The position numbers and the translations under genes are program-made. Below, piece by piece: positions 9,916 through 56,237 of a DNA stretch of 56,237 nucleotides (the stretch's first letter is position 1; each line of letters begins with the position of its first letter). The notes below the pieces were generated by a model that did no database searches, was not told where the DNA came from, and saw only the letters and a program-made list of their open reading frames with translations. The stretch is from a virus (lineage: Duplodnaviria; Caudoviricetes): positions 1-56,237 of the IMG/VR virus record IMGVR_UViG_3300032462_000007; one strand, written 5' to 3'.

Positions 9916-10013
9916 CCTACAATGCCAAAAAAGACCGCGCCCACATTTTAAACATTCAACATTATTAAGAATAAGCCATTTTTCCCCTGGATATTTTGGG
10001 GAATATTAGATAT

Positions 10014-14153: not shown

Positions 14154-14747
14154 TTATGATTTAACAGGCAAAGTATATCTGGAGTAAACTACTCTTTCTG
14201 ACCAGATTTTTTCAATTCTTACATATCCACCAGGTTTGGGGGAATGAACAATTTGACCATCTCCTATAAATATTCCATTATGATATGCGTGTCCACCTTT
14301 AGTTAAGAAAAATACAAGATCTCCTGGGACTGCTTCCTCAGCAGATATTCTTGTCATTTTTTCTAATTGCTCACCTGTGGATCTTGGAATTAATATTCCT
14401 TGCTTCTTATAGACATATTTAGTATATCCAGAGCAGTCAAAACCTCTTGGTGTAGTTCCGCCCCATGAATATGGGGTTCCAATATAGGATTTTCCTGTTT
14501 TAACGATATCTTCACTTAAAGATATTCTTTTAAGAGACCTTGAAGAGTCTACTCTGGCTCTTGTAATTAAATATTTATCAATATCTAATTGTATGATGTC
14601 GGAAGAAATATATCCTTCCCTTTCTGTTGTACTATTAGCACTGTTAGGACTGTAGCCTACTGGTAGCTTTGAATCATTTGTTGTTAAAACAAACAATGCA
14701 AGAAGCGCAATAGGGGCAGTCCAAAACAAGGTTTTAGACTTCATCAT
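14154..14747 (-). CDS. Secreted NlpC/P60 (C40) peptidase
   Basis: Signal anchor; [35 protein letters not shown]. Confidence 0.9.
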
Positions 14748-14809
14748 TAAATAGTAGCACACTTAGTGGCTAAAAGTCAAGTTATGTATGAATATTAAGA
14801 CAATAAAAA

Positions 14810-15322
14810 TTATTTACTTTTCTTTTTTATAATACGACTTTTACTTTTCTTTTTTATAGGAGACCTTTTTACTTTTTTTTTTACAACTGGAGCTACAACT
14901 TTTGCTTTTACTTTATTAACAACAGAAGCTGGCTTAGTTCCAAGTATCGTGGATGGATCCAGGTCTTTTCCTGAACCCCATCTAACATTGTCTCTCATTT
15001 CAAAATGAAGGTGAGGACCTGAAGAGTTTCCAGTGTTACCTGATTTTCCAATACTTTGTCCTTCTTTAACAACATCTCCTGGTTTTACCAGCTTTTTCGA
15101 TAAGTGTGCATAAATTACCCACCCACCATTTACTTTTTGTACCAGCTGAGTGCCATAAGCAGAACCCCAGTTAGCAGACTCAATTTTTCCATCAGTAACA
15201 GCAACAATGTCTGTTCCAGTTGGAACTGCAAAGTCAACTCCTGTGTGATATCCTTTTGACCACATTTTTCCAAGTTTTTTATAAGGTGTAGTGACCTTTC
15301 CATTTTTAATTGGTGAACCCAT
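14810..15322 (-). CDS. M23 peptidase, probable endolysin
   Basis: HTGVD, YAHL, GNSSGPHLHFE; Lys-rich C-terminal tail. Confidence 0.9.
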   Translation of the reverse strand: MGSPIKNGKVTTPYKKLGKMWSKGYHTGVDFAVPTGTDIVAVTDGKIESANWGSAYGTQLVQKVNGGWVIYAHLSKKLVKPGDVVKEGQSIGKSGNTGNSSGPHLHFEMRDNVRWGSGKDLDPSTILGTKPASVVNKVKAKVVAPVVKKKVKRSPIKKKSKSRIIKKKSK

Positions 15323-19147: not shown

Positions 19148-19348
19148 CTATACACTCTCCGCTATGATATAAAATGCTTCTGCAAATGCGGCATTCTCAG
19201 TAGCAAGATCCACTACATGAGAAGGATCTGGACCAGTTATTCTGGCAGATAAATATACTTTTAAAGATTCTGAATAAATCTTTACAAATTCATCTACTGT
19301 GTAGTATTTTGGCACCTTTTCTTGTGTTTTCATATTCATTTTTTCCAT
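19148..19348 (-). CDS. Hypothetical protein
   Basis: ORF in the - strand operon. Confidence 0.55.
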   Translation of the reverse strand: MEKMNMKTQEKVPKYYTVDEFVKIYSESLKVYLSARITGPDPSHVVDLATENAAFAEAFYIIAESV

Positions 19349-19986
19349 TCTATTAATAGTTTATTGTGTTTACTTCTATTACAGGCTCTACAAGCTGGGA
19401 CAAGGTTGCCAATTGAGTGCTGGCCACCCCTGCTTATTGGCACAACATGATCTGCCTCAACATTTTCTCCTGATCCACAGTAGAAACATGGTGAATTATA
19501 AAGCCTTACTAGTTCTTTCTTAGATATTTTGTATGTACCATTATTAAGTTTTTGTGCTCTGCGCTTGGCATTGTTATTTCTCATCTCATCAGCGTTGTTT
19601 AGGCGATACTGCTTGTAATAAGCCCTTTTGCTATCAACATTTTCTAAATGATATTGCTTGTTATAAATCTTTTTATTTTCAGCATGATCTAATCGATACT
19701 GTTTGAACTTATCAATATTTTCTAATCTGTATCGCTTCTTTTGCTCTTTTATCATATCAATATTTTCTATGTAATACCGCTTGTAATAAGCCCTTTTGCT
19801 ATCAATATTTTCTAAATAATATTGCTTGTCATAAATCTTTATGTTTTCGGCATTTTCCAAGTCGTATTGTTTTTTATAAATCTTTACACAACTTTTACAA
19901 GAGCTCTTAAGACCACTATTATTCCTTTTGTCTTTGTGAAAGCTATCAAAAGATTTTAAGACTTTGCATGTGCTACAAATTTTCAT
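19336..19986 (-). CDS. HNH homing endonuclease
   Basis: N-terminal CxxC..CxxC, Y/K-rich repeats (about 70-bp duplication at 19611 and 19779), CFYC..DHVVPISRGG.HSIGNLVPACRACNRSK. Confidence 0.9.
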   Translation of the reverse strand: MKICSTCKVLKSFDSFHKDKRNNSGLKSSCKSCVKIYKKQYDLENAENIKIYDKQYYLENIDSKRAYYKRYYIENIDMIKEQKKRYRLENIDKFKQYRLDHAENKKIYNKQYHLENVDSKRAYYKQYRLNNADEMRNNNAKRRAQKLNNGTYKISKKELVRLYNSPCFYCGSGENVEADHVVPISRGGQHSIGNLVPACRACNRSKHNKLLIEWKK

Positions 19987-22636: not shown

Positions 22637-22882
22637 CTACTTGTTAGGGTAGGTTATGTCGAGAATTGGGTCGAACGTTACTTGTGCTCCCAATTTCTCC
22701 AGTATTTCTCTTATACCCATCATATATTTTATGCGAGTAAGTCTTTCTGCATCAGACAAATGTCTCCAATGACTTTCATAGAATTGAATACCAAGGAATT
22801 TATCATAGTCAACTATATCCATATGAAAATCTGCAGGTGGTTTTATTGAATGTACCGCCTTTTTCATATTCGATGTATACAT
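22637..22882 (-). CDS. Hypothetical protein
   Basis: TAATG coupling to whiB. Confidence 0.7.
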   Translation of the reverse strand: MYTSNMKKAVHSIKPPADFHMDIVDYDKFLGIQFYESHWRHLSDAERLTRIKYMMGIREILEKLGAQVTFDPILDITYPNK

Positions 22883-23163
22883 TATTCTTTTTCCATTGTC
22901 ATTCCAGACCAGATATCAAACCAGTCTGTTTTTTCTTTATGACTATTAAATTCTTTAGATATCTTTCCGCCCTCTAAATAAACGCCGCCCCACACACCCC
23001 ACTCAGAATTACTAACTCCGTAAGCGAGGCACTGTCTTTGTGCTGGACAACTTATACATAATAGGTCTACTTTCTTTGAGACTTCCTTGTCTTCTTCATA
23101 TTGATCAAAAAACAAGTTGGTATCCATATTAAGACAGGATGCTTTTTCATCGAACTTGTACAT
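22882..23163 (-). CDS. whiB: WhiB-family transcription factor
   Basis: Four-Cys pattern (C, CxxC, C), LFF, GVWGG. Confidence 0.92.
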   Translation of the reverse strand: MYKFDEKASCLNMDTNLFFDQYEEDKEVSKKVDLLCISCPAQRQCLAYGVSNSEWGVWGGVYLEGGKISKEFNSHKEKTDWFDIWSGMTMEKE

Positions 23164-32484: not shown

Positions 32485-34746
32485 TTATAATACCTCCATT
32501 AGTGTAGTAGTTCCTTCTTTTGTCTTTCCAAAATTAATCTTTGCCACGCTACCTGGCTGACACTTCATGTACCCAGTCGAGAACATTGTTGGAAATACCA
32601 TTGCAGCAATCATCTCTCTTGAACTATTAGCAACAATCATATTAGCCATTCTTTTTCCAGCCTTAGTAACCCTTGGAGTAAATGATAGCACAAAGTGCTC
32701 ATCATTTGCAAATGGGACTTGCTTATAGTTTAAAAACTTAATAAGAGGACTATCTTTATGCTCTTTTAATTCATCAACTGGAATTGCTTCAGAGATTCTA
32801 TTTGCACCTGCAAGAATTAAATATGTTCTTCCAGGCTCAATTTTAGTCTCTTCTTCATCAAATATTCCGACTACTCCAGTTGAGTCCATAATTTCTACTC
32901 TTGACCAACCTTTACCACGCTTAATATTTTTTGCAATGCCAAGAAGAACAAATACATTTTCTTCATCAAATTCTTCTATCAAACTTACATAAGCATAATA
33001 GTGTTGAGGAATGCTTGTATTCAATTCAGGTAGATTAAGATACTCATAAAGATTTTCTCTTACCCTTTCTTCATCCCTCGGATTATCTGCAAATGTTAAT
33101 GCGCCAATTGAATCAAGTGCTTCGACTGCTCTTGAACTAATTCCACTTGCCTTTTCATGAGAGAAGTCTTGGAACTCTTGCTTCGACTGAAACGGTCTAC
33201 CTGAAATAATCTTCTTGGCAACTCCGTCAGATAGCCACTTGATTGCAGCAAGGCCAAATCTAATGCCATTGCCCTCAATTTTGAAGTCTGAATCTGACTC
33301 ATTGATATGTGGAAGCTTTAACGAGATTCCCATGCGCTTTGCCTCAATTAAATATTCTGTACGGGTATCGCTATCTTTCTCACTCTTTAGAATTGAGAAT
33401 ATAAATTCGATTGGGTAGTATTGCTTAAGCCAAGCAGTCCAATAGGATAGCGTTGAGTATGCGACAGCGTGAGACTTGTTAAAGGAATATCCTGCATGAG
33501 CCTCGAAATCGTGCCATAACTTTGTTGCCCTAATTCCGATATGCTTTTCTGCATTGTTAATAAACTTATCTTTAAAGAGGTCAAACTCTTTGGCATCCTT
33601 TTTCTTTCCAATAATCTTACGAACCTTGTCCGCCTCAACCATTGTCATGCCACCGAGAATAACACACGCTTGCATTACTTGCTCCTGATACAAAACACAT
33701 CCATAGGTATCTTTCAAATAATCATTCATAGACGGATGAATATATTCCACCATCTCCTTGCCATGCTTACGGGCAATGTATGATTTTCCAATGGTATTCA
33801 TAGCACCTGGTCTAACAAGAGCATTGGATGCAACTAATTCATCAAAGTTATTAACCCTCAACTTAATCAAAAGATTTGTATAAGGCCTTGCCTCACACTG
33901 GAAGACACCCTTAGTACGCCCCTCAGACAGCATTTCAAATACTTTTCTGTCATTTAGGGGTATTGCCTTTAGATCAATATCTATTCCGTGACGTTCTTTA
34001 ATTGTTTTAATAGTCTGATCAATTACAGTCAATGTTTTTAGACCAAGAATATCAAGTTTAATAAGTCCAATTTCAGCAGCTTCTTCCATATCAACTGCGA
34101 CTACTGGAATTCTTTTCTTACTACCTGGGGCTACCCGTGTTTCAAGTGGTGCATATTTAAAAATTTCATCCTTTGCAGTAACAACTCCTGCAGCATGGAT
34201 TCCAGTTCCACGGATTCTTCCTCTAAGTTGCTCACCATATTTAACAATTTCAGGGTATTTCATTCTAAACCATTGTGCTCCTGCTGATCTTGTAAAGTCT
34301 TCCCAAGTGTCAACACTCTTCAAAACTTTATTCACATCATTAAGAGGGATGTTAAATGCTCTGGCAACATCTCTTACAACACCCTTTTCTTTAAATTCTA
34401 AGAATGTAGCAATAGATGCAACATTTTTATATTCCCGTTCAAGATATGACTTTACTTCTTCTCGCCTATCATCTGCAAAGTCAGTATCTATGTCTGGGAA
34501 GTCCTCGCGGCCATGATAAACCTCTAAGCCTACAGGATAGGTCTTTGGTTCTTCATCTGTTATCCCAATCAAGTATGCAACTGAAGAAGAAATCTTGTTA
34601 GATACCTTTTCTTTACCAACATGCTTCAGATATAGATCTTCAATTTTAAGATTATTTATTGCACATATCTCGTCAACTACCCACGAATCATCTAGAACAG
34701 ATCTCTTTGATTGACTCACTAAATCCTTCAGGTCTAAAATCGACAT
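32485..34746 (-). CDS. dnaE: DNA polymerase III alpha (DnaE), C-terminal part
   Basis: FPDIDTDF, GIHAAG, KLDILGL, GVFQ, RPG, YQEQVM, YSFNKSHA; GAAAGG RBS. Confidence 0.92.
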   Translation of the reverse strand: MSILDLKDLVSQSKRSVLDDSWVVDEICAINNLKIEDLYLKHVGKEKVSNKISSSVAYLIGITDEEPKTYPVGLEVYHGREDFPDIDTDFADDRREEVKSYLEREYKNVASIATFLEFKEKGVVRDVARAFNIPLNDVNKVLKSVDTWEDFTRSAGAQWFRMKYPEIVKYGEQLRGRIRGTGIHAAGVVTAKDEIFKYAPLETRVAPGSKKRIPVVAVDMEEAAEIGLIKLDILGLKTLTVIDQTIKTIKERHGIDIDLKAIPLNDRKVFEMLSEGRTKGVFQCEARPYTNLLIKLRVNNFDELVASNALVRPGAMNTIGKSYIARKHGKEMVEYIHPSMNDYLKDTYGCVLYQEQVMQACVILGGMTMVEADKVRKIIGKKKDAKEFDLFKDKFINNAEKHIGIRATKLWHDFEAHAGYSFNKSHAVAYSTLSYWTAWLKQYYPIEFIFSILKSEKDSDTRTEYLIEAKRMGISLKLPHINESDSDFKIEGNGIRFGLAAIKWLSDGVAKKIISGRPFQSKQEFQDFSHEKASGISSRAVEALDSIGALTFADNPRDEERVRENLYEYLNLPELNTSIPQHYYAYVSLIEEFDEENVFVLLGIAKNIKRGKGWSRVEIMDSTGVVGIFDEEETKIEPGRTYLILAGANRISEAIPVDELKEHKDSPLIKFLNYKQVPFANDEHFVLSFTPRVTKAGKRMANMIVANSSREMIAAMVFPTMFSTGYMKCQPGSVAKINFGKTKEGTTTLMEVL

Positions 34747-35266
34747 GTCTTCTACCTTTCTTTAAGTTGCACCTCAGGCACATTGGCTGTATATTGTCAT
34801 AGGCGTTATGGCCCCCATTAATCAATGGAATTACATGGTCTACACTATCTGCAAAAACTTCTTCACAGGCAATGCATAGATACTTTGTTAATTGTAGTGC
34901 CGCTTCCCACTCTTTCACGCTTAGTATACCAGGATAACCCTTATTCCTACACTTTTGATTACTCCTGTGAGCGAGTAGCTGAACCCTATTCTTTTTCCTA
35001 TATATTGCTAGAGTCTCTTTTATTCTTTCGGGATTTCGATCACGCCATTCTTTATGCTTTTTTAAATAAACGGGGTCACCTCTTACTTTTTGCCAGCGAG
35101 CTTTCCCGTACTCACTCTTTTTTTCCTTGCTTCTAGTTGCTTCATATTTTTTTGACAGGACCTTCTTACACTCTTTACAATGACCCTGAACACCATTAGA
35201 TGTCTTAGAGCTTCTGTGATACTCTGAAAAATCTTTAGTAATTCCGCATAGGGGACATCTTTTCAT
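34688..35266 (-). mobile_element. HNH homing endonuclease inserted within dnaE
   Basis: CxxC..CxxC N-terminus; CIAC..DHVIPL..GG.N..DNIQPMCLRCNLKK; own extended -10 TGATATACT 6 nt before the ATG. Confidence 0.88.
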
Positions 35267-35289
35267 AATTTAAGTATATCACACATTCA

Positions 35290-36579
35290 TCAAATGGCCA
35301 AATCAAAACCTGAAAAACTTTCCCACTTAGCCTGGTCACCACTTATAAATCTAAAGAAAAGCAATCCATATTCAATAGGATCAATATCTGTAATTCCAAG
35401 TGCATAGCATACCAAAGAACCTGCAGCACTACCTCGACCTGGACCAACCATAATGCCTTGCTCTTTTGCCCAACTAATCATATTATTAACAACTAAGAAA
35501 TATGGTGAAAAGTTTTTTGACTTAATAACACTAAGTTCTAAATCTAATCTATCTAAATATTCTTTATTTTCAGAGAATCCCTTTAGATTTATTCCTCTAT
35601 AAGCAAGTGCCATAAGTTCTTGATCTGGATCTTCAACATTTATTGGAAGAAGTTCGAGCCCACTATGAATTGTATATTCTTCAACCTTGTTTGCAATCTC
35701 AACAGTATTTTCATAGATATCTTCACGCTTGATTCCCTGATTTTGCATGGCAGTTTTAATTTCTTCATAAGACAATAGGTGAATATCAAATGTTCTAAAA
35801 CTCATCATTCTATCTTCCCCATATAAATAGTCAAGTCTTTTCATTGGGTCTTCAATCTTTGAAGCCTTTTCAAAAGTTGTATCTTTCTTAACCTTTGCAT
35901 GGGTATTAAGAAGTAGCATCATTTCCTGGATTACTTTTTGACTCTTGTCAGAGTGGTGGCAATCAGGTGTTACTACTGGCTTGACATCGTAGGTGTCAGC
36001 CATTTCTAATAATTCTTTATTTAGTTCCGCAGGATTATGTGGCATAAGCTCAACATAAAAGTCATCCCCAAAGTTTTCTTTGAACCAAGTCATTAGTTTT
36101 TTTGCAGCAGCATATTCTTTATGCTCAATTGCTTTAGCAAGAAGCCCACTCATACAGGCTGACAATACTATAATTCCCTCTTTATATTTTTCTAAAATTT
36201 CAAAGTCAATTCTTGGCTTTCTGTAATATCCTTCAGTCCAAGCTAACTCATTTAACTTATTTAAATTTTCCAAACCTTTATCATTTTTTGCAAGAAGAAC
36301 TATGTGGTTATAAACCATGTCTAATGGATCAGTTCTTTCAGATTTATCTCTTGTGTCAAATCTATCTGCTGTGATATAGCCTTCAATGCCCAATATAGGC
36401 TTTATTCCATTTGCTTTTGCAGCCCTATACATTGGTCTATGGCCCGACAGAACGCCGTGGTCTGTTACTGCAATAGCAGATAGTCCAATCTCAGAAGCAC
36501 GTTTTGCATATTCTTCTGGTGTCGCAACTCCATCCATTAGGGAGTAGTGAGTGTGTACATGAAGTGGAACGTAAGTCAT
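35290..36579 (-). CDS. dnaE: DNA polymerase III alpha (DnaE), N-terminal PHP part
   Basis: LHVHTHYSLMDG, TDHG, GPGRGSAAGSLVCYALGITDIDP..LLF.RF. Confidence 0.92.
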   Translation of the reverse strand: MTYVPLHVHTHYSLMDGVATPEEYAKRASEIGLSAIAVTDHGVLSGHRPMYRAAKANGIKPILGIEGYITADRFDTRDKSERTDPLDMVYNHIVLLAKNDKGLENLNKLNELAWTEGYYRKPRIDFEILEKYKEGIIVLSACMSGLLAKAIEHKEYAAAKKLMTWFKENFGDDFYVELMPHNPAELNKELLEMADTYDVKPVVTPDCHHSDKSQKVIQEMMLLLNTHAKVKKDTTFEKASKIEDPMKRLDYLYGEDRMMSFRTFDIHLLSYEEIKTAMQNQGIKREDIYENTVEIANKVEEYTIHSGLELLPINVEDPDQELMALAYRGINLKGFSENKEYLDRLDLELSVIKSKNFSPYFLVVNNMISWAKEQGIMVGPGRGSAAGSLVCYALGITDIDPIEYGLLFFRFISGDQAKWESFSGFDLAI

Positions 36580-48392: not shown

Positions 48393-48946
48393 AGGTCGTG
48401 GTTAGTCCCACCTCTTTTAACTATGTTGTAGCTAAAATTTGAAAAGAACACTTCTAAAATGTCTGAATACTTATCTAAGTTTTGATATATTTCATCAGCA
48501 AAGGTTTGTGGCTTATCGTATGATAAAAATACATAGAATGATCCAGGATTTGCAGTGTACCACTCCAGCAACTCTGCTCCACCAGCCCCACCGTCTGCTG
48601 TATATTCGGACAGTCCAGTAACTGTGGCAACTCCGTTGTCACCAAATTCTGGATCTCCATCATAAGACCTGGAGGGTAATAAATTATATGCAAAAGATAC
48701 ATCTATCTTGTCTGCAATATGATAAGAACGCATATGACCATTGACCATTCTCTTTCTATTCTCAAGTCTATTGGCACTAAAAGAAATATCGCTTCTATTG
48801 TGGTCAGAAAGGATTATGAAGTCTTCTCTTTCTATTCCCGAAATTTGTGGAACACCATTTAAAATTCCACCAGAATTGTTGGAAAAAATCATTGCTTGTG
48901 GTCTTATCCACTTTTTTCTGCTATTTAAATATGCACTACTGACCAT
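48359..48946 (-). CDS. Distal-tail-like protein
   Basis: Immediately after the TMP; R.RMVNG.MRSY..ADK, W.I...LEEV. Confidence 0.6.
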   Translation of the reverse strand: MVSSAYLNSRKKWIRPQAMIFSNNSGGILNGVPQISGIEREDFIILSDHNRSDISFSANRLENRKRMVNGHMRSYHIADKIDVSFAYNLLPSRSYDGDPEFGDNGVATVTGLSEYTADGGAGGAELLEWYTANPGSFYVFLSYDKPQTFADEIYQNLDKYSDILEVFFSNFSYNIVKRGGTNHDLWDISIALEEV

Positions 48947-51900
48947 TAGTAATTATAACTCCTTAAATTTCCTCTTGTTTGATTTGAAAGCTTTGCCATA
49001 ACAACGTTTGCAATTTCATCTGGAGAAGCATTTGTTCCAGACACATTTACATTTACGCTATATGTATTATTATACATTGGTGAGGACGTGGCAACGACAC
49101 TTGAATTATTGACTGGTATACTTGAAGATCCTCGTTCTGGAATAGAATATCTTGGAGAACCCATTCCATCCAGGAAGTTGTTAGTTGGAACCTTTGATCC
49201 TGAACCAATTCCAGGGAAGGCCTGATTATTTAGTGCTTCTAGGAATGGCATATTGTTTTTTGCTACCGATTTTCTTATAACAAATTCACCTGGAGTAAGC
49301 ATCGCTGGAACCTTGTCAGTCATGCCTACGCCTGGCACAGTGCTACCGTAAGCCATTTTTAGCGTTGGAGGTGATTCATTTGATCCTTTATATGCAACGC
49401 CTCCATAAGCCATTTTCATCATTTTTCCACCATACTGCCTATATTGATTATGGTCAACTCCAGATACGTTTTTAAAATCAGCCATCAATGATTTTAGCAT
49501 TTCTTTTTGAGCACTTGTTAAGTTTTTTTGAGCCCTTATAGCTTCTATGGTTTGCTTTTGTTGAAGCAAGTATATTCTTAGTTCTGTTGCAGCTCTTGCA
49601 TCAGCCAACTTTAGTCTTTGCTCTTCAATAATATATAATCTATCTTCAACTACCTCTATTTGTTCATTAAGAGTTTTATTTCTTCCCAATATTTGCTCTC
49701 TTGTTAACATTTCATTATTAATTGATATTGCTAAAGATTTTATTTCTGACTGCATCTTTTCTTCCAATGCTGCTCTTGTATCTTCAAGTTGATATTGTGC
49801 AGATTTATATTGCATATCATTTGCCGCACTTGCTGCTGCTGCTATATCTCCAGATGCTAGGGCGGTTGCAAGGCTTAGTCTAGATTCATCTTGACTTAAT
49901 ATTCTATCATTTGTATTAGCAACCTTATCTAATGCCTTAAATCTTTCATCATAAACTTTATTTATAGAGTCTTCTTTTTCAGAAAGTTCCTCAAGACCTC
50001 TATTATTTAATGCTAACTGTCTTTGCTTTACTCTTATAACTTTATTTTCATTTTCGGCATTTTGTTCTAATGCTTTTGTTTGGCTGTTTAGACTTGCAAT
50101 TGTTTTTTCTTCTGAACTCATTGATAGGTATGCAAAAGCTCTGTCAGCAATCAATCTTTTTTCTGCAGACTTTGTTAATTCATCTAAAATTCTTTTTCCT
50201 TCTTTTCTAATTTTAGAAGTTTTTGATTCTGTCATTGCAATTGCTTCTAGATATCTTACTTGATCTATTAATAAAATTGCTTCCATTTTTGAAGTTCCAA
50301 TAATTTCCATAGTTACTTGCAAGTATTTTTGTTTTTCTTTTGTAAACTTAATAAATTCTTCTACATATTCTTTAAGAGTTTGAGTTTTAGATCCGCCTTT
50401 GTCTTCGTTAGGATCGTCACCTTGCGTATCTATTGCCTTATTATATTCAGTCTTGAAAGCTTTGGCGGCATCTACTTCTGCTTGTTCTATAGCCTGTAAA
50501 ACTGCTTTATTCGCTCCACCTTCACCACCAGCATACTGTTCTTGCGCTGCTAAAACTTTTGTTTGATATGTTGTTGTGTAAACTAGCAGTAAATCTTTTC
50601 TTGTTTTATCATCTAATTTTAAAAATCCGTTAAGTTCTTCACCCATAAGATCATATCCAATAGTATCAAAAACTACTTGTTTTGTAATTGGAGTTTCAAG
50701 AGCATGTATTCTTGTTGCAGCAGAATATAAAGAGTCTATTTCTTCTTGACCAATTGTTGAAATATCTATAGTTGTTGTAATTGCTGAAAAACTTTCAATA
50801 AATGATAATTTATCTTTTAATTCATCCAGCTTATCTAAGTCAATATTATCAAAGTTTACTATTTTTCCTAATGCAATTCCTCCATATTGTGATATTTCTC
50901 CAGCAAGAATTGATGCAAGTATTTTTGTAGAAGCTGCAACGTTGTCAGAACCAATTGCATCTTCTAAGTCTTTTGACATTTGTTTTGCAAGTTCTTCACT
51001 AGCTCCAGAATCTATTAATGTTTTCACATATATATCTTTATATTTATTTAAATTTTCTTTTAATGCATTTAATGCTATTGAATTTTTTGCTTCAAGATCT
51101 GCTTTAATTTGTGCCTGCTCCTGTTCGCTTGCAGTAGGAACCATGGGACCTGCCTCTGTTGCTTGTGCCTGCTCCTGTTCGCTTGCAGTAGGAACCATGG
51201 GACCTGCCTCTGTTGCTCTTGTTGGATCAATTGGTTGCGTTGGGTCTAATTGACTATTTGTTTGTTGGAAGCGCCTTAAAGCATCTCCAGATTCCTTTGC
51301 AGCTTTTAAAAGATCTTCGGTTGAATTAAATCCAGAAGTTTTTGCCAATATTATCATTGACCTTGTACTTATTTTATCGGACTCTTCATTTAATATAGAA
51401 ACCTGTCTATTATATTCTTTTAAATCAATAGTTCCTTCTTGGAATGCAAGACTTATAAGGGCTCTTGCGTTTGCTTCTTTTTTATAATTTTCAACTGTTA
51501 TTTCTGAATTTTGTGATAAAATTTGTTCATCTATAAATCCTTTTCGTCCACTACCAAATAATCCCTGTAAAATCTTTTCTCCAAAATTTAATTCATTATA
51601 AACTTTTTGAGCATCTGCTTTAAGCTGAGCTAAATCTAGCTTAGCAGAGATTTCTGCATTAATTTCTACAGCATTTGTTAATAAATTTTTTCCTCCTACT
51701 CCAATTAATGAAGTCAACTCTCCAACAACTTGAACTCCAAACCTTTCGTCTCCAATGGCTTTACCAACTTCTGAAGCAATAGCTGCCGCCTCTTCTGGAC
51801 TAATTATTCCAGCAATTATTGAAGATGTTAATTGATTTCTTAAAGCTTTTACAGCATCCCCTCCAGAAGATTTTACATTTTTAATATCATCTACCATTGT

Positions 51901-54900
51901 TTTTCCAGCACTTGATTGAACAAATCCCGTTCCAGCCTGTTGATCCTCTTGCGATATAGTTGAGCCTGAAGCTTTTTCAATTGAAGATGTTAATAATTTT
52001 TGAGAATTTGTTTGTCTTCCAAAGAATTTCGCCATCTCATTAGTTTTATCAGCACTTCCATACATTGCTTTTGTAAATTCTGAAGATGCTTTTTTTGCCT
52101 TTTTTAAATCTTGATTTAAAGCATTTAATAAAAATCCTGTAGTAAGTAAACCCTGTACAGCAATACCAATTGGACCCCCTATCATTGCAAATTTTGAAAA
52201 TGTGGACACAGAGGTTGCAATTTTAGGAATTAACTTTCCCATTCCTTTTGAAGTTAATTGAGTATTTTTTGAAGCCACTACTAATGTTTTTGAAAATTTA
52301 TTAAATGCTGCTACTGCAGCTAGACTTGCTGCAGCTCCAGCTGCTTCTTTTCCAAATGCACTTTCTACTCCAGCTTTTTTTGCAATGAATTCTCCACCAG
52401 CATATCCACCAATTCCTACACCTATTTGTTTAACATTAAAACCACGCTTAAGAGCCCCTGGTCCTTTTTCTACTTTAACACCAGATGCTTTCATATCTGT
52501 AATAAATCTAGAAGCTCCACCTTTAATTGAATTTCCTGCAGAGTCTACTGTGGATACCATTCTTTGCATTGCCATTGTATGCATTGCTCCTGCTTTTGCA
52601 TATGCTGTATTGTTTGCAGATATTTTTGCAAATGTTGTTGATAGTTTTTGTGCCCCATCATTTAATGCTAAGTTAAGTTTTACAATAGCTCTTGATGGTG
52701 TCATAGATGTATCTGTTCTTAATGCTTGACCAGTTGCGGAGCTACTTGCTCTTTGATATGGATCTCTTTGTCCCATCATAATATTTGCTCTTGTATATGG
52801 AAGACCAGGAAGTGTTGGTTTTAAATATTTTACATTCTGAACTATTCTTTGAATATTTTCTTTAGCAAAATATTGCATACCTGCAACTCCGCCAGAATTT
52901 AATTTTTCACCATTATTAATTTGTTTAAGCAAATCCATATTTCCTTGTGTTGCTTGTTTGTTTACAACAAATTCTCCAGGGGTAAGCATTGCTGGAACGG
53001 TATCGGTATTTCCAACTCCAGGAACAATGGTTCCATTATTTGCTCTTAAAACATTTCCTGGTGAAACAATTTTTCCTCCAAGATTTACTCCAGTGGAGTT
53101 GCTCCAGGAATTTAAATAATCTTCGTTTGCCTTCTTTTTAATAGCCTTTTCTAAAATTGCCGCCTCTCCAACTGGATCTGATAGCTTCATTTTTTTAGGA
53201 TTCAAACCAGATATTTTAAACATTGCAGCTAGAACAAGTTTTTCAGCTTTTGTTGGATTAGAGGTTGTCATTAAAGTTTCAATAATTTTTTTACTTTCAC
53301 CAGTTGTTGAAGATGTTACTTTTCTTGTTATACTTGCTATAGAATGTAATGTTTGTGGAGAAAGTAGTACTTCATCCATGCTGAAATTTGATCCTGATGT
53401 TGGAGTGGTAAAGGGTAGAGCTTTGCCCATATCAATTCCAGCAGTACCCTTTTTAGAATTAACAAGTATTCTAGCAACCTGTGCTACTTCTCTACTTCCA
53501 GTTCCAAGATCATTTAGCCCTGCTGAAATTTGAAAAGCGTCTTCCCTATTTCTTGTAGTTGATCTAACTGATCCTGTTGAAAAAGATTTTGGATTTTTTG
53601 CAAGCAATTCGGCATCTGCTGGACTTAATGCTCTAAATAGTTGGTTTCCCTTTCCTACATTTCCTTTTTGGGTAAACTGTTCTAGTATAGATCTAGACGT
53701 GCTATTACCTTGATGTGCAAATCTTGGATTCATCCAATATTCTTGTAAGGATGACATTTCTCTTTGATTTGCCATAGGAGTTTTTATTTTACCAGTAGGT
53801 AAAACTTTTTTTAATAAGCTTGAAAATATTTCTCCTCCAAAATTATATCCTGGTATTATTCCACCATTATTTCTTTTTACAGTTTCTGTCTGTAGAACGG
53901 GAAGTTTAGTTTTTAAATCACTTGATACTCCAGTTATTCTAGATGTTCTTTTACCTAAAAGCGTTTCTTGTTCTTTTTTCATTAATTCCATAGCATAGCC
54001 AGGGCTTCTATGATAAGCAGTAGGTATTCTGCTTCCAAATGCTTCCATTAAATTTAAAGCAGGAGTTCCAGCTGGTACTTTTTCATTTATTAATAATTGT
54101 TTAACCATTTTTTCTGGAAAACGGCTATTAAATGTTGCCTTACCTTCTTTATAAAATTTTAAGTAATATGAAAGTACTTCTTCAAATGTCATTTCACTTC
54201 CAGGATTTCCCCTTGTTAAAGCATTACTCCATGAAGACTGTGCAAGCAATCTTCTATAATCATCAGATCCAGGAACTAGTTTTCTTCTTTTTGCTTCTTT
54301 AATTCCTTTTCTAACTAAAGCTATATTTGTTTTATATCCTGCAAGACTATCTATACTTGATGTAAAAGCACTTGTTAATCTATTGCTTGATCCAGCTATA
54401 AACGGATTGAAATCTAAATTTCTATTACCTGTATAAGAGCCAAAACTTTTAAAATTTAAAATCATATCATGAAGTTCATCATAATTTCCAGATCTAAGTG
54501 CTCTAACAATTTTTGCTTGTTGTGCAACTGGAAGCTCATCGCTCATATTGCTTCCTACAGTAGTTGCTCTAGTAAGACTTTGTTGTTTTTGTGTAGGTTT
54601 AAACTGTGAATTTAAAGAATTTAACATAGTAAAGTCTGGATCACTTACTGTATTTTGTTTAGTTACACCATTCCACCCATGCTGTAGATCTCCCTCTCTT
54701 ATTTTTTTTGGTCCACCAGTTCTAAGATACTCATTTAAAGTTTTAAAATTTAATTTTCTTTGTTGGCTTGGAAGTCTTGTTCTTGTTCTTCTAAGAGATT
54801 TTATTGCGTTACTACCAACTTGTGAAAGAAGTTCTCCTCCAGGATTTAAATATTGAACTCCTGGAACTTTTCCACCCTTGTTTGCAAATAATGTATCTAT

Positions 54901-56237
54901 CACGTCTTGTAATGGTTTTGGTGTAGAGGTGTGTGCAAAAAGACTATTATCTTTTCTTGATCCTGCCAGCCTTCCTACTTCTACACTCTGACCATTCGGA
55001 GACCTAAATTTTAGAACTTGAGCAGTAGTTGATCTTCTTTTTGAGCTTGTGTGGGCCCCCATGCTTCGAGAAAAAAGTTTCCAAACTTCCAAAGCCTCTG
55101 AGTTTCCTCCTAGTTCTTTTCTAATGATGTCATCAGAGACTTGCCAAAATGGGTTTGCCTTATCCCCTAACCTTGATCCTTTAGATATAGTTTTAAAATA
55201 TTCTGAGTGAATGCTGTTTGATAATTTAGCAGCCGTTTTTTCATCAATAATAGGATTTCCTGTTCTTGTCAATGCATCAAGAAACTGTTGTGTAGAACTT
55301 CTGTTCTTTCCATTACTTGCTAGAAATGCAGATTTCATTAATTCAGTAGGAAGCGACCCAGTAGAAAGTAGTCCGTTAATCCTTTCTCTTGAAATAACTC
55401 CATTTTTTACAAGATCTGGAAATTTTTTCAAAACTTCTGGATCAGTTATATCTCCTATATATAGCCCCCCCGTTCCTTTGGGGACGTATCCATCACCTTC
55501 GCCTCTGAAATTTGGATGAACGACCTTCATCTGTTCTTTATTTAATTTTCCAGGAACTATTTTATTAATTTGACTAGTAGCGTTTGGACTATTTTTAGCT
55601 CTACTTATACTTGAGTTTCTTTTTAGCAAGGCCTGGACTTTAGGATTTGCGGTAGTACTTTTTAAGAAGTCGTCAAGACTCCCCATGCCACCTCTTTTTA
55701 TTAGGTCAAGAATTAACCTTGCCTGGGAAACAACTGCTCCTCTATTTAAATGCTGAATTCCTTTTGCCATTCCTCCAGAATTAAATGACTGTGATTTTCC
55801 ATTATTATTAATTTGATGTAGAAGTCCTAAATTATTTTGAGTAGCTTCTTTATTTACAACAAATTCTCCAGGGGTAAGCATTGCTGGAACGGTGTCCGTA
55901 TTTCCAACTCCAGGAACAGTAGTTCCACCTGACATAAATATTGGTCCACCAGAATTTCTTCTTAATGCTCTAACTATTAAATTACCAGGATTAATTCTTT
56001 TTGCTCCACCAGCCACTCCAGCCGTTGCCCCAGCCGCTGCAGTAGCTCCTGCGGCACCTGCAGCACCTGCAACTGCAAATGATGGCAGGCCTGCAGCAGC
56101 TCTTTGAGTAGCAATCATTGCAGAATAGGCTCTTGTCAAGTTTCCTACAGCCACTGCTGCCGCATTTGCTGATCCAGCTTGTTGGACAAGCGTGGTATTT
56201 AAAACTTGTGTGGCTCCAGATAGTTGTTGTGCGGCCA
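48946..56237 (-). CDS. Tape measure protein, 5' end beyond the window, with embedded ART-like cargo domains
   Basis: More than 2400 aa, frame open to the window end; Ala/Gly-rich and coiled-coil segments, three TD.VPAMLTPGEFV motifs, position upstream of tail genes. Confidence 0.85.
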   Translation of the reverse strand, partial: AAQQLSGATQVLNTTLVQQAGSANAAAVAVGNLTRAYSAMIATQRAAAGLPSFAVAGAAGAAGATAAAGATAGVAGGAKRINPGNLIVRALRRNSGGPIFMSGGTTVPGVGNTDTVPAMLTPGEFVVNKEATQNNLGLLHQINNNGKSQSFNSGGMAKGIQHLNRGAVVSQARLILDLIKRGGMGSLDDFLKSTTANPKVQALLKRNSSISRAKNSPNATSQINKIVPGKLNKEQMKVVHPNFRGEGDGYVPKGTGGLYIGDITDPEVLKKFPDLVKNGVISRERINGLLSTGSLPTELMKSAFLASNGKNRSSTQQFLDALTRTGNPIIDEKTAAKLSNSIHSEYFKTISKGSRLGDKANPFWQVSDDIIRKELGGNSEALEVWKLFSRSMGAHTSSKRRSTTAQVLKFRSPNGQSVEVGRLAGSRKDNSLFAHTSTPKPLQDVIDTLFANKGGKVPGVQYLNPGGELLSQVGSNAIKSLRRTRTRLPSQQRKLNFKTLNEYLRTGGPKKIREGDLQHGWNGVTKQNTVSDPDFTMLNSLNSQFKPTQKQQSLTRATTVGSNMSDELPVAQQAKIVRALRSGNYDELHDMILNFKSFGSYTGNRNLDFNPFIAGSSNRLTSAFTSSIDSLAGYKTNIALVRKGIKEAKRRKLVPGSDDYRRLLAQSSWSNALTRGNPGSEMTFEEVLSYYLKFYKEGKATFNSRFPEKMVKQLLINEKVPAGTPALNLMEAFGSRIPTAYHRSPGYAMELMKKEQETLLGKRTSRITGVSSDLKTKLPVLQTETVKRNNGGIIPGYNFGGEIFSSLLKKVLPTGKIKTPMANQREMSSLQEYWMNPRFAHQGNSTSRSILEQFTQKGNVGKGNQLFRALSPADAELLAKNPKSFSTGSVRSTTRNREDAFQISAGLNDLGTGSREVAQVARILVNSKKGTAGIDMGKALPFTTPTSGSNFSMDEVLLSPQTLHSIASITRKVTSSTTGESKKIIETLMTTSNPTKAEKLVLAAMFKISGLNPKKMKLSDPVGEAAILEKAIKKKANEDYLNSWSNSTGVNLGGKIVSPGNVLRANNGTIVPGVGNTDTVPAMLTPGEFVVNKQATQGNMDLLKQINNGEKLNSGGVAGMQYFAKENIQRIVQNVKYLKPTLPGLPYTRANIMMGQRDPYQRASSSATGQALRTDTSMTPSRAIVKLNLALNDGAQKLSTTFAKISANNTAYAKAGAMHTMAMQRMVSTVDSAGNSIKGGASRFITDMKASGVKVEKGPGALKRGFNVKQIGVGIGGYAGGEFIAKKAGVESAFGKEAAGAAASLAAVAAFNKFSKTLVVASKNTQLTSKGMGKLIPKIATSVSTFSKFAMIGGPIGIAVQGLLTTGFLLNALNQDLKKAKKASSEFTKAMYGSADKTNEMAKFFGRQTNSQKLLTSSIEKASGSTISQEDQQAGTGFVQSSAGKTMVDDIKNVKSSGGDAVKALRNQLTSSIIAGIISPEEAAAIASEVGKAIGDERFGVQVVGELTSLIGVGGKNLLTNAVEINAEISAKLDLAQLKADAQKVYNELNFGEKILQGLFGSGRKGFIDEQILSQNSEITVENYKKEANARALISLAFQEGTIDLKEYNRQVSILNEESDKISTRSMIILAKTSGFNSTEDLLKAAKESGDALRRFQQTNSQLDPTQPIDPTRATEAGPMVPTASEQEQAQATEAGPMVPTASEQEQAQIKADLEAKNSIALNALKENLNKYKDIYVKTLIDSGASEELAKQMSKDLEDAIGSDNVAASTKILASILAGEISQYGGIALGKIVNFDNIDLDKLDELKDKLSFIESFSAITTTIDISTIGQEEIDSLYSAATRIHALETPITKQVVFDTIGYDLMGEELNGFLKLDDKTRKDLLLVYTTTYQTKVLAAQEQYAGGEGGANKAVLQAIEQAEVDAAKAFKTEYNKAIDTQGDDPNEDKGGSKTQTLKEYVEEFIKFTKEKQKYLQVTMEIIGTSKMEAILLIDQVRYLEAIAMTESKTSKIRKEGKRILDELTKSAEKRLIADRAFAYLSMSSEEKTIASLNSQTKALEQNAENENKVIRVKQRQLALNNRGLEELSEKEDSINKVYDERFKALDKVANTNDRILSQDESRLSLATALASGDIAAAASAANDMQYKSAQYQLEDTRAALEEKMQSEIKSLAISINNEMLTREQILGRNKTLNEQIEVVEDRLYIIEEQRLKLADARAATELRIYLLQQKQTIEAIRAQKNLTSAQKEMLKSLMADFKNVSGVDHNQYRQYGGKMMKMAYGGVAYKGSNESPPTLKMAYGSTVPGVGMTDKVPAMLTPGEFVIRKSVAKNNMPFLEALNNQAFPGIGSGSKVPTNNFLDGMGSPRYSIPERGSSSIPVNNSSVVATSSPMYNNTYSVNVNVSGTNASPDEIANVVMAKLSNQTRGNLRSYNY
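51109..51217. repeat. Perfect 54-bp tandem duplication in the TMP
   Basis: Encodes ATEAGPMVPTASEQEQAQ twice. Confidence 0.9.
52961..55918. repeat. 66-bp direct repeats at 52961-53026 and 55853-55918
   Basis: 64/66 identical; offset 2892 bp = 964 codons. Confidence 0.9.

Follow-up and report, generated by a model that had tools for sequence, protein, structure and literature searches.

An internal, motif-bounded slot for exchangeable modules in the predicted tape-measure protein of a phage family assembled from metagenomes

Two near-identical direct repeats lie in frame within one long gene of the virus record IMGVR_UViG_3300032462_000007 (Duplodnaviria; Caudoviricetes), and they raise the question of whether the coding sequence enclosed by them is exchanged between related phages and, if so, what the exchanged parts do. 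The stretch analyzed, hereafter the window, is the entire 56,237-nucleotide record, and the gene in question, at positions 48946..56235 on the minus strand, is predicted to encode a tape-measure protein (TMP). A first-pass annotation, made from the sequence letters alone, had described the repeats as the borders of a swappable cargo cassette of three domains. We find that the interval between the repeats is a modular slot and that otherwise close relatives differ by in-frame replacement, insertion, or deletion of its modules. Our favored explanation, which we regard as probable, is that exchange occurs in frame at the bounding motifs and at the linkers between modules, that the modules leave the virion with the TMP, and that the second module in the window is an ADP-ribosyltransferase (ART).

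The open reading frame (ORF) comprises 2429 codons, is open at its 5′ end, and runs off the end of the contig at position 56237. Pfam yielded no match in this ORF, and PF10145 (PhageMin_Tail) is absent from the ORF and from the entire record because the ORF is cut ~604 residues into the protein. Residue 1 of the window ORF aligns to residue 605 of the 2760-residue ORF of L001, the closest relative of the window in IMG/VR, and PF10145 is present at residues ~235 to 433 of full-length relatives (L004, E 9e-26; L059, E 2e-27). L004 and L001 derive from one IMG/VR contig, to which window residues 1–169 match at 88% and the C-terminal part at 92%. A PHROGs search of the window ORF matched only the motif described below, three times, with one TMP family among the matches. 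The alignment with L001 and the occurrence of PF10145 in full-length relatives therefore identify the gene, by homology, as that of a TMP truncated by the contig end. Its position agrees with tail-gene order, in which distal and minor tail genes lie downstream: on its 3′ side are a 195-amino acid gene, a 1507-amino acid minor tail protein (phrog_10359), and a tail protein (phrog_9983). On the 5′ side of the TMP gene, L059 has two small ORFs (111 and 90 amino acids). An apparent start codon formed by circularizing the record (an ATG across the ends, from position 1 and 56235–56237, in frame with the TMP ORF) was rejected as coincidental because the record is a linear fragment that CheckV rates as 52% complete, because L001 extends 604 residues farther upstream, and because a PF10145 domain and homologues of the upstream genes are absent from the record.

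The repeats belong to a longer protein motif of ~45 amino acids, with the consensus VPGxGNTDTVPAMLTPGEFVVNK...LLxxIN, whose PAMLTPGEFV segment occurs at residues 117, 1081, and 2310 of the window ORF. Copy A (residues 103–148; 55792..55929, minus strand) scores 84 bits with a hidden Markov model (HMM) of the motif, and it shares with copy B (residues 1067–1112; 52900..53037, minus strand) the sequence VPGVGNTDTVPAMLTPGEFVVNK, found at residues 107–129 (~55849–55917) and 1071–1093 (~52957–53025), respectively. Copy C (residues 2296–2341; 49213..49350, minus strand) carries VPGVGMTDKVPAMLTPGEFVIRK at residues 2299–2321 (~49273–49341) and ends 88 amino acids before the C terminus, these last 88 residues and the stop codon occupying 48946..49212 (minus strand). 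The two 66-bp cores (55853–55918 in A and 52961–53026 in B, the latter being A-like in its DNA) were confirmed to differ at only 2 of 66 positions. Their spacing of 2892 nt equals 964 codons, which places A and B in frame, and a repeat search extended the A/B similarity to 141 nt at 82% identity. Copy C is indeed more diverged, with 53 of 72 nt (24 codons) matching A and 52 of 72 matching B, and the three "cargo domains" of the earlier annotation match three modules, of 303, 337, and 278 amino acids, that are separated by linkers.

One explanation for this arrangement, that of the first-pass annotation taken strictly, is that A and B were recently duplicated and that the cassette is swapped whole between the 66-bp repeats. 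The 64 of 66 identity, the shared reading frame, and the coincidence of the variable-region boundaries with those of the A–B interval speak for this explanation, which we nevertheless consider improbable given how widely the motif is distributed. From the 234 IMG/VR relatives found to have an alignable conserved N-terminal part, the best 80 of 234 were analyzed; 12 duplicate full-length TMPs (identical, but under other IMG dataset numbers) were dropped, leaving 45 unique complete relatives plus the window. Of the 58 complete TMPs in the family, 57 have three copies according to the motif HMM. Copy A, at residues 673–752, ends a conserved N-terminal part of ~680 amino acids that includes PF10145, copy B begins at 983–1815, and copy C lies 58–108 amino acids from the C terminus. 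The only complete TMP with two copies (L068, from position 10001 onward, 2183 amino acids) was considered as an "empty slot" and rejected, as its residues 719–1800 align to nothing. Another TMP (L079, from 7373, cut by the contig end) has the motif at residues 686–731, 1732–1777, and 1974–2019 before the contig ends, and a fourth copy may be present, together with a short (~200 amino acids) extra segment between motifs.

The motif also extends to cultured phages. A 66-residue query around copy B matched 124 cultured-phage records, and nearly all of the matches listed fall in an annotated TMP; they include 83 Gordonia phage records, usually with two places each, and phages of Nodularia, Burkholderia, Ralstonia, and Synechococcus. 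In the TMP of Gordonia phage Howe (L084, KU252585.1, 10520–17068), copies reside at residues 999–1046 (weak), 1674–1718, and 2010–2055, and an SLT transglycosylase domain (1585–1675) abuts the second copy. When the sequences of solved structures were searched with a profile of 16 motif copies, mycobacteriophage Douge gp16 matched at residues 973–1013 and 1422–1461 (E 1.3e-3), and Pseudomonas phage JBD30 gp46 matched weakly at 1023–1066 (E 0.6, key residues aligned). The solved parts of these TMPs are only the last 42 (Douge) and 33 (JBD30) residues. The same profile found no match in T5 pb2 at E ≤ 10. A three-copy layout that is family-wide, together with the occurrence of the motif in such distant phages, excludes a recent duplication.

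The other half of that proposal, a recent homogenization of the repeats, holds for the window genome. Over a 63-nt core, A and B agree at 61 positions in the window, the highest value among 24 genomes, whereas the 23 relatives have 47–58 matches and are mostly at the level of a null distribution in which A of one genome is compared with B of another (mean 51.4, SD 2.75, maximum 60). Because 61 of 63 exceeds all 552 null comparisons, the A/B likeness in the window is not due to chance. The window B core agrees with A cores at 64–67 of 72 nt but with the orthologous B of L001 at only 60 of 72, which points to a B core that was overwritten to resemble A, either by a short gene conversion or by a crossover ending at the B core. 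L008 (58 matches) and L031 (57 matches) may be weaker cases of A/B homogenization. A related idea, that A copies are unusually conserved in DNA, was rejected since their conservation equals the baseline set by codon usage and relatedness.

We then compared the segments on either side of copy B among relatives. TMPs of the family are 1978–3260 amino acids long, and the variable part is internal, from residue ~750 to ~1000–1800, where it gives way to a homologous body and C terminus. The A–B interval ranges from 252 to 1064 amino acids (918 in the window), and the B–C interval ranges from 822 to 1683. The 45 unique relatives form 990 pairs, and a segment was termed unalignable when <10% of it was alignable by blastp (E < 1e-3). 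Among the 15 pairs whose N-terminal parts are at least 95% identical, the A–B interval is unalignable in 20%; this fraction rises to 50% of 82 pairs at 85–95% identity and to 82% of 106 pairs at 75–85% identity, whereas the B–C interval is unalignable in 0% of the pairs in every class. The earlier expectation that the inter-repeat segment varies while its flanks are conserved was thereby borne out, and an invariant, vertically inherited segment was not seen among these relatives.

Junctions were mapped in the 130 pairs with at least 75% N-terminal identity and an unalignable A–B interval. On the N-terminal side, alignments stop a median of 26 amino acids past motif A (interquartile range 6–51, with some gapped alignments reaching far longer), and on the other side they begin a median of 3 amino acids ahead of motif B (interquartile range –14 to –1). 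In DNA alignments, identity of 90–95% breaks off inside copy A or 20–96 nt past it, and in three pairs copy B is a lone island of similarity with 83–86% DNA identity. Exchange junctions cluster at motifs A and B and at the linkers, which form a conserved landmark bounding the variable region.

The composition of the slot was resolved by use of a linker, N-[KS]-G-G-x-[VI]-P-G-x-[QN]-Y (NKGGxVPGxQY), that recurs within multi-module slots and resembles the first half of the motif. Splitting 53 distinct A–B segments at this linker gave 77 modules in 20 families (single linkage of matches at E < 1e-5 covering 50% or more of the shorter module), a number that depends on the linker regular expression and includes some long pieces left unsplit. 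This procedure replaced an initial clustering by 50-residue bins, which had chained everything into one group. A slot contains between one and four modules, which belong to about 20 sequence families that cannot be aligned with one another; the order in the window is F10–F6–F20. All of the following features are on the minus strand. Copy A is followed by the linker FNSGGMAKGIQHLN (55744..55785) and module 1 (F10, 303 amino acids, 54883..55791), then by the linker NKGGKVPGVQYLNPGG (54835..54882) and module 2 (F6, 337 amino acids, 53872..54882), and finally by the linker NNGGIIPGYNFGGEI (53827..53871) and module 3 (F20, 278 amino acids including linkers, 53038..53871).

Sequence families that cannot be aligned might in principle be the products of extremely fast divergence, under diversifying selection, of a single ancestral module, with no exchange of cassettes. 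Profile–profile matches between families fall nearly all within the first 20–40 residues, which correspond to the linker, but a few links extend past it: F7–F10 over 73 columns, F1–F3 over 71, F3–F7 over 66, and F3–F11 over 124 columns at 75% probability, all from shallow profiles. In addition, the dN/dS ratio (nonsynonymous to synonymous divergence) of F6 between the window and L001 is 0.55, compared with 0.2 in its neighbors. We still regard this possibility as highly improbable on account of how modules are combined. F6 is always the second module, and in five TMPs it comes after first modules of five different families (F3, F5, F7, F8, and F10). Furthermore, L020 and L022 have N-terminal parts that are 95% identical and F6 modules with 97.7% DNA identity, but their first modules bear no relation to each other (F8 versus F3) and L020 carries an additional third module.

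Comparison of the window with L001 reveals such events at nucleotide resolution. By blastn, identity is 91% through the end of motif A and is followed by ~850 nt without similarity, where L001 has the unrelated F5 in place of F10. F6 then aligns at 86%, a 759-nt F20 segment is present only in the window, and a single alignment continues from there to the end of the locus. Relative to L001, the window thus has one module swapped and one inserted. At the left junction, within the linker after copy A, the two proteins have ...FNSGGMAKG(I/V)Q(H/Y)LN in common before their sequences part; at the right junction, in the linker preceding F6, they rejoin at (A/L)NKGGKVPG(V/T)QYL, so that the swap is exact between two linkers. 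The F20 segment (53086–53821 being absent from L001) is flanked on each side by the sequence N(F/L)GG(E/K), the two copies agreeing at 12 of 14 nt; the left copy of this microhomology lies in the linker at 53827..53871.

The region from B to C behaves differently. This body (49351..52899, minus strand) is ~99% identical to that of L001, compared with 72–90% for those flanks that can be aligned, and in sliding 90-nt windows the identity is 72–80% through the B core, 96–100% at residues ~1100–2300, 88% at the C core, and 62–86% beyond. The exceptions within the body are a tandem-repeat indel and one window of 93% just ahead of copy C. Synonymous divergence (dS, by the Nei–Gojobori method) is 0.016 in the body, compared with 0.29 in the N-terminal flank plus A, 0.23 in F6, 0.37 in the B region, and 0.62 in C plus the C terminus. 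The simplest reading of this profile is that exactly the B-to-C body was exchanged recently, with its joints in the motif copies. Divergence changes abruptly at the motifs, which makes this an unusually clean case of in-gene mosaicism with defined joints, and differences in dS of ~15- to 40-fold between segments of one gene also argue against rapid divergence of a single ancestral module.

Two further features of the gene deserve separate mention. An exact 54-nt tandem duplication (51109..51216, minus strand) encodes ATEAGPMVPTASEQEQAQ twice; a contig of run X4 has a single copy (its joint skips 54 nt), and the alignment to L001 dips at this place. In runs X1 and X4, which belong to different studies, identical loose-end sequences occur at 52009 and 53967. 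These shared ends indicate that co-occurring relatives share part of the TMP gene and branch off at fixed points inside the body and inside module 2.

Since mosaics of this type might be generated during assembly, we weighed whether they are chimeras in which the assembler switched strains at conserved motif islands. All of the loci are metagenome contigs, co-occurring relatives leave loose ends inside the gene, and Logan contigs break at A, B, and C, as A and B share a 41-nt exact run. Against this stand 12 full-length TMPs that are identical across different IMG dataset numbers, the presence of 94% of the window stretch in a run from a different study, and a summed contig depth in run X1 of 94–147 over all bins of the slot and body. 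Moreover, linkers that are ~80% identical seldom share exact words of assembler length, and L001, which comes from another dataset, keeps the module order F6, B, body. We therefore give an origin of the mosaics as assembly artifacts very little credence.

The events observed also define the unit of exchange. The whole cassette between the repeats is not the sole unit, as the first-pass annotation would have it, because single modules swap at the short linkers and the B–C body is swapped as well. A precise 2892-bp deletion between the repeats, which the same annotation had suggested looking for, did not appear: no A/B joint is present in the assembled contigs of runs X1, X4, X5, and X7, although contigs lose rare variants and break at repeats, such that this search says nothing about absence. 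Apart from the copy-number difference of the 54-nt tandem repeat, the same check turned up one unclear skip of 79 nt. The single-module and body events, and the lack of a 2892-bp joint in the four contig runs, count further against swapping of the cassette as a whole between recently duplicated repeats.

We turned to the modules for evidence of function. A search with the window slot against 1.84 billion representative proteins produced only 25 matches. Each of them falls in module 1, in module 2, or at the start of the slot, and the matching proteins are mostly 2000–3400 amino acids long. Module 2 is the sole module that was modeled successfully. Its AlphaFold2 model, built from a nine-sequence alignment, has a mean predicted local distance difference test (pLDDT) value of 67, and its core (model residues ~100–340, equivalent to ~53872–54594) is mostly at 80–96. 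When the model was compared with the PDB by Foldseek, the matches listed (ranks 1–49) were all ARTs of the iota/CDTa/C2/C3/VIP2 type, with a best E of 3e-3 and probabilities of 0.98–0.99. A wide VIA-align search (48,161 chains) placed the ART toxin 6drh_B first (Z 8.5, 97 amino acids, root mean square deviation 3.2), with the RHS ART domain 6aqk_A tied for second (Z 8.3, 110 amino acids) and XopAI, HopU1, C3stau2, VIP2, SpvB, and Certhrax next (Z 7.2–7.9). Only the ARTs cover model residues 97–340; other chains match just the long helical hairpin at 166–261. In BFVD, two of the four matches with E ≤ 1e-3 are named ADP-ribosyltransferase/VIP2. The BFVD matches include mycobacteriophage VIP2 proteins and a head-morphogenesis protein, and ADP-ribosylases of the Alt/ModA/ModB type match more weakly. 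Residues R108 and S152-Y-T154 are invariant and located on predicted strands, and a later strand carries a D/N-E270 pair, with D in one of seven rows. We accept on moderate, purely structural evidence that module 2 adopts an ART fold. Because it has no sequence match, its likeness is to be placed at the level of the fold, and we do not assign the module to PF03496.

The other two modules are less revealing. Module 1 is homologous to the single module of L010 (48% identity), but it provides no functional lead, with no Pfam match and nothing above 0.83 in the ESM Atlas. Module 3 is an orphan for which no homologues were found in the 1.84 billion representatives, the TMPs of the 80 relatives, or a metagenome contig scan; Pfam gave no match (E ≤ 10), and a PDB sequence search returned only lysozyme at E 0.8. 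In the ESM Atlas, 12 of the 30 clusters nearest to module 3 are of the PF03496 type (scores 0.92–0.94), which offers a weak lead toward a relationship with the ART fold.

Several observations weigh against our favored explanation. For module 2, the Foldseek TM-scores are ~0.22, the Z values fall in the range that VIA-align itself terms middling, the sequence alignment reveals no canonical ExE or QxE, and no match to PF03496 was obtained (Pfam E ≤ 10; A–B segments E ≤ 0.01). For module 3, the ESM Atlas recognition value of 2083 lies below the mark of 2300, and the single-sequence AlphaFold2 model, with a pLDDT of 44, is unusable. No Pfam family scored above its cut-off in any of the 53 A–B segments, and PHROGs gave no match in the 32 of 53 that were tested, so the term "effector" draws on one modeled module. 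The precise A/B deletion is missing from the contigs, as noted above, and L068, the sole complete TMP without copy B, is too diverged for interpretation. Synonymous codon identity across the family is 0.59–0.61 in motif A and 0.60 in the N-terminal region; a motif at the N-region baseline implies no general constraint on, or homogenization of, its DNA. Finally, all relatives in the family are metagenome-assembled contigs.

With these reservations, a sequence of steps can be proposed for the motif-bounded slot. The conserved DNA of motifs and linkers would provide in-frame homology for recombination between co-infecting relatives; alternatively, selection may retain only those recombinants whose junctions fall at a motif or linker. 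The recombination step fits with the fact that the phage encodes recombination genes of its own, as the window contains genes for a UvsX-like recombinase, a Cas4-like exonuclease, and Holliday-junction resolvases, one of which is RuvC-like. As parts of the TMP, the modules would ride inside the tail tube, exit the virion at infection, and thereby reach the host envelope or cytoplasm before the DNA does. Once there, module 2 could play the part of an injected ADP-ribosyltransferase, like T4 Alt or MuF–VIP2 fusions. The motif copies may be docking points, cleavage points, or both, a role suggested by analogy with the proposals for JBD30 and T5.

A more specific version, in which the A–B slot is a polymorphic array of injected effectors, the hook motifs and linkers serve for docking or cleavage, one to four free modules are released, and recombination reshuffles the array, is possible but rather doubtful. 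If it were true, the array would include ARTs together with unrecognizable activities, for example in host takeover or anti-defense, and some of the "VIP2-like toxins" of freshwater actinophages would acquire a host-directed reading. The first-pass annotation had likened the locus to a polymorphic-toxin slot. One module with an ART fold and exchange bounded by a conserved landmark agree with that comparison, whereas the internal position of the variable part, the lack of Pfam or PHROGs matches, and the lack of a variable immunity gene downstream do not. Directly downstream lies the conserved 195-amino acid gene, which is kept in the window, L001, and L002 (translated matches 54–80% identical) and is followed by the conserved tail genes; no variable immunity gene was found at this position, and the remainder of the genome was not searched for one.

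The A–B modules could instead be structural, serving as spacers, plugs, or parts for envelope penetration in a slot that varies with tail length or host envelope. The A–B lengths appear quasi-quantized (~270–345, 526, 626–700, 900–960, and 1064 amino acids), the Pfam (53 segments) and PHROGs (32 segments) searches identified no enzyme family, and the known TMP inserts (SLT in Howe and the muralytic pb2C of T5) act on the cell wall rather than in the cytoplasm. However, the model of module 2 shows a compact ART fold of the alpha/beta type, whose strands bear invariant polar residues, rather than a coiled coil, and non-homologous replacement on backbones that are 95–97% identical is more typical of conflict cargo than of rulers. 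A structural role is therefore an unlikely explanation in our judgment.

Enzymes embedded in TMPs and polymorphic fusions of structural proteins with toxins are both already known, and the window family resembles each in part. As in T5 pb2 and the SLT-bearing TMP of Howe, a globular domain in a TMP is carried in the tail lumen and expelled at infection, and the motif of the window family recurs in Howe, with one copy directly beside the SLT domain. For T5 pb2, cleavage is described as freeing the C-terminal muralytic part. Unlike these two cases, the window family has an array of one to four modules from ~20 unalignable families that are swapped between relatives, and its modules match no known lysin family, one having an ART fold. 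Mycobacteriophage TMPs, with motifs such as that of TM4, belong among these known cases of embedded enzymatic domains.

T4 Alt is an ART that is injected with the DNA as a separate, head-packaged protein; the window would likewise have a virion-borne ART delivered at infection, but inside a tail protein. The MuF–VIP2 ARTs of Microbacterium phages, which are actinobacteriophages, are predicted virion components (PMC7302621), and in them, too, a conserved structural part of the virion is fused with a toxin-like domain that varies. In MuF fusions the carrier is the head protein MuF and the toxin is C terminal, whereas in the window the TMP takes the role of carrier and the variable part lies inside it, with the motif on both sides and several modules in a chain. 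The layout of polymorphic toxins, a conserved delivery domain with a variable C-terminal toxin, is not that of the window family.

A possible role for the motif comes from JBD30 gp46, in which residues 1022–1066 (of 1158) are predicted to form a hook of two helices and a beta-hairpin (PMC11445458). The same source proposes, speculatively and by analogy with T5 pb2*, that the hook anchors the TMP to the baseplate after cleavage at 1066 (PMC11445458). The motif match at 1023–1066 coincides with this predicted hook, and copy C is 88 amino acids from the C terminus, compared with 92 in JBD30. Copies A and B differ from the JBD30 and T5 pb2* accounts in being internal and flanking cargo, for which those papers contain no precedent. 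In a full-text literature search, an exchangeable module slot or an ART within a TMP was not found described among the matches listed.

Features of the remainder of the window bear on the host. The public runs containing the window stretch are freshwater and estuary metagenomes, the G+C content of the window is ~35%, and a gene for a WhiB-like regulator lies at 22882–23163. This combination suggests that the phage may infect a low-GC freshwater actinobacterium, and its family can be described as a large group of actinophage-like siphoviruses from freshwater. Neither tblastn with the whole protein nor megablast with 16 kb of DNA detected any cultured relative apart from Pseudanabaena phage Pan1, which matched in the motif. 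Elsewhere in the window, a family-A DNA polymerase (phrog_405, 32485–36579) occupies two ORFs (35290–36579 and 32485–34746) that are split by an HNH/endonuclease VII-like gene (34688–35266), and a similar endonuclease gene is present at 19336–19986. An M23-type metallopeptidase (14810–15322) adjoins a protein with a tail-lysin-like C-terminal domain (14154–14762), so the phage appears to encode cell-wall enzymes outside the TMP.

TMPs are usually seen as rulers with an occasional cell-wall enzyme. In the family described here, an internal slot is found throughout and is filled with unrelated modules on near-identical backbones. Cultured phages of Gordonia, Mycobacterium, Pseudomonas, and cyanobacteria also carry the motif in their TMPs, so its possible roles in docking, cleavage, or recombination can be tested in tractable systems, and the TMP of Howe, with three motif copies and an SLT domain, provides a cultured actinophage in which to do so. 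VIP2-like ARTs in freshwater phages have been interpreted as anti-eukaryote "Trojan horse" toxins (PMC6802176). Should the modules indeed be delivered to the host, effectors would have in the TMP a second route of injection from the virion, beside head-packaged ones such as Alt and the MuF fusions, and the ~20 "dark" module families would be candidates for host takeover or anti-defense functions in what are likely to be abundant, mostly uncultured freshwater bacteria.

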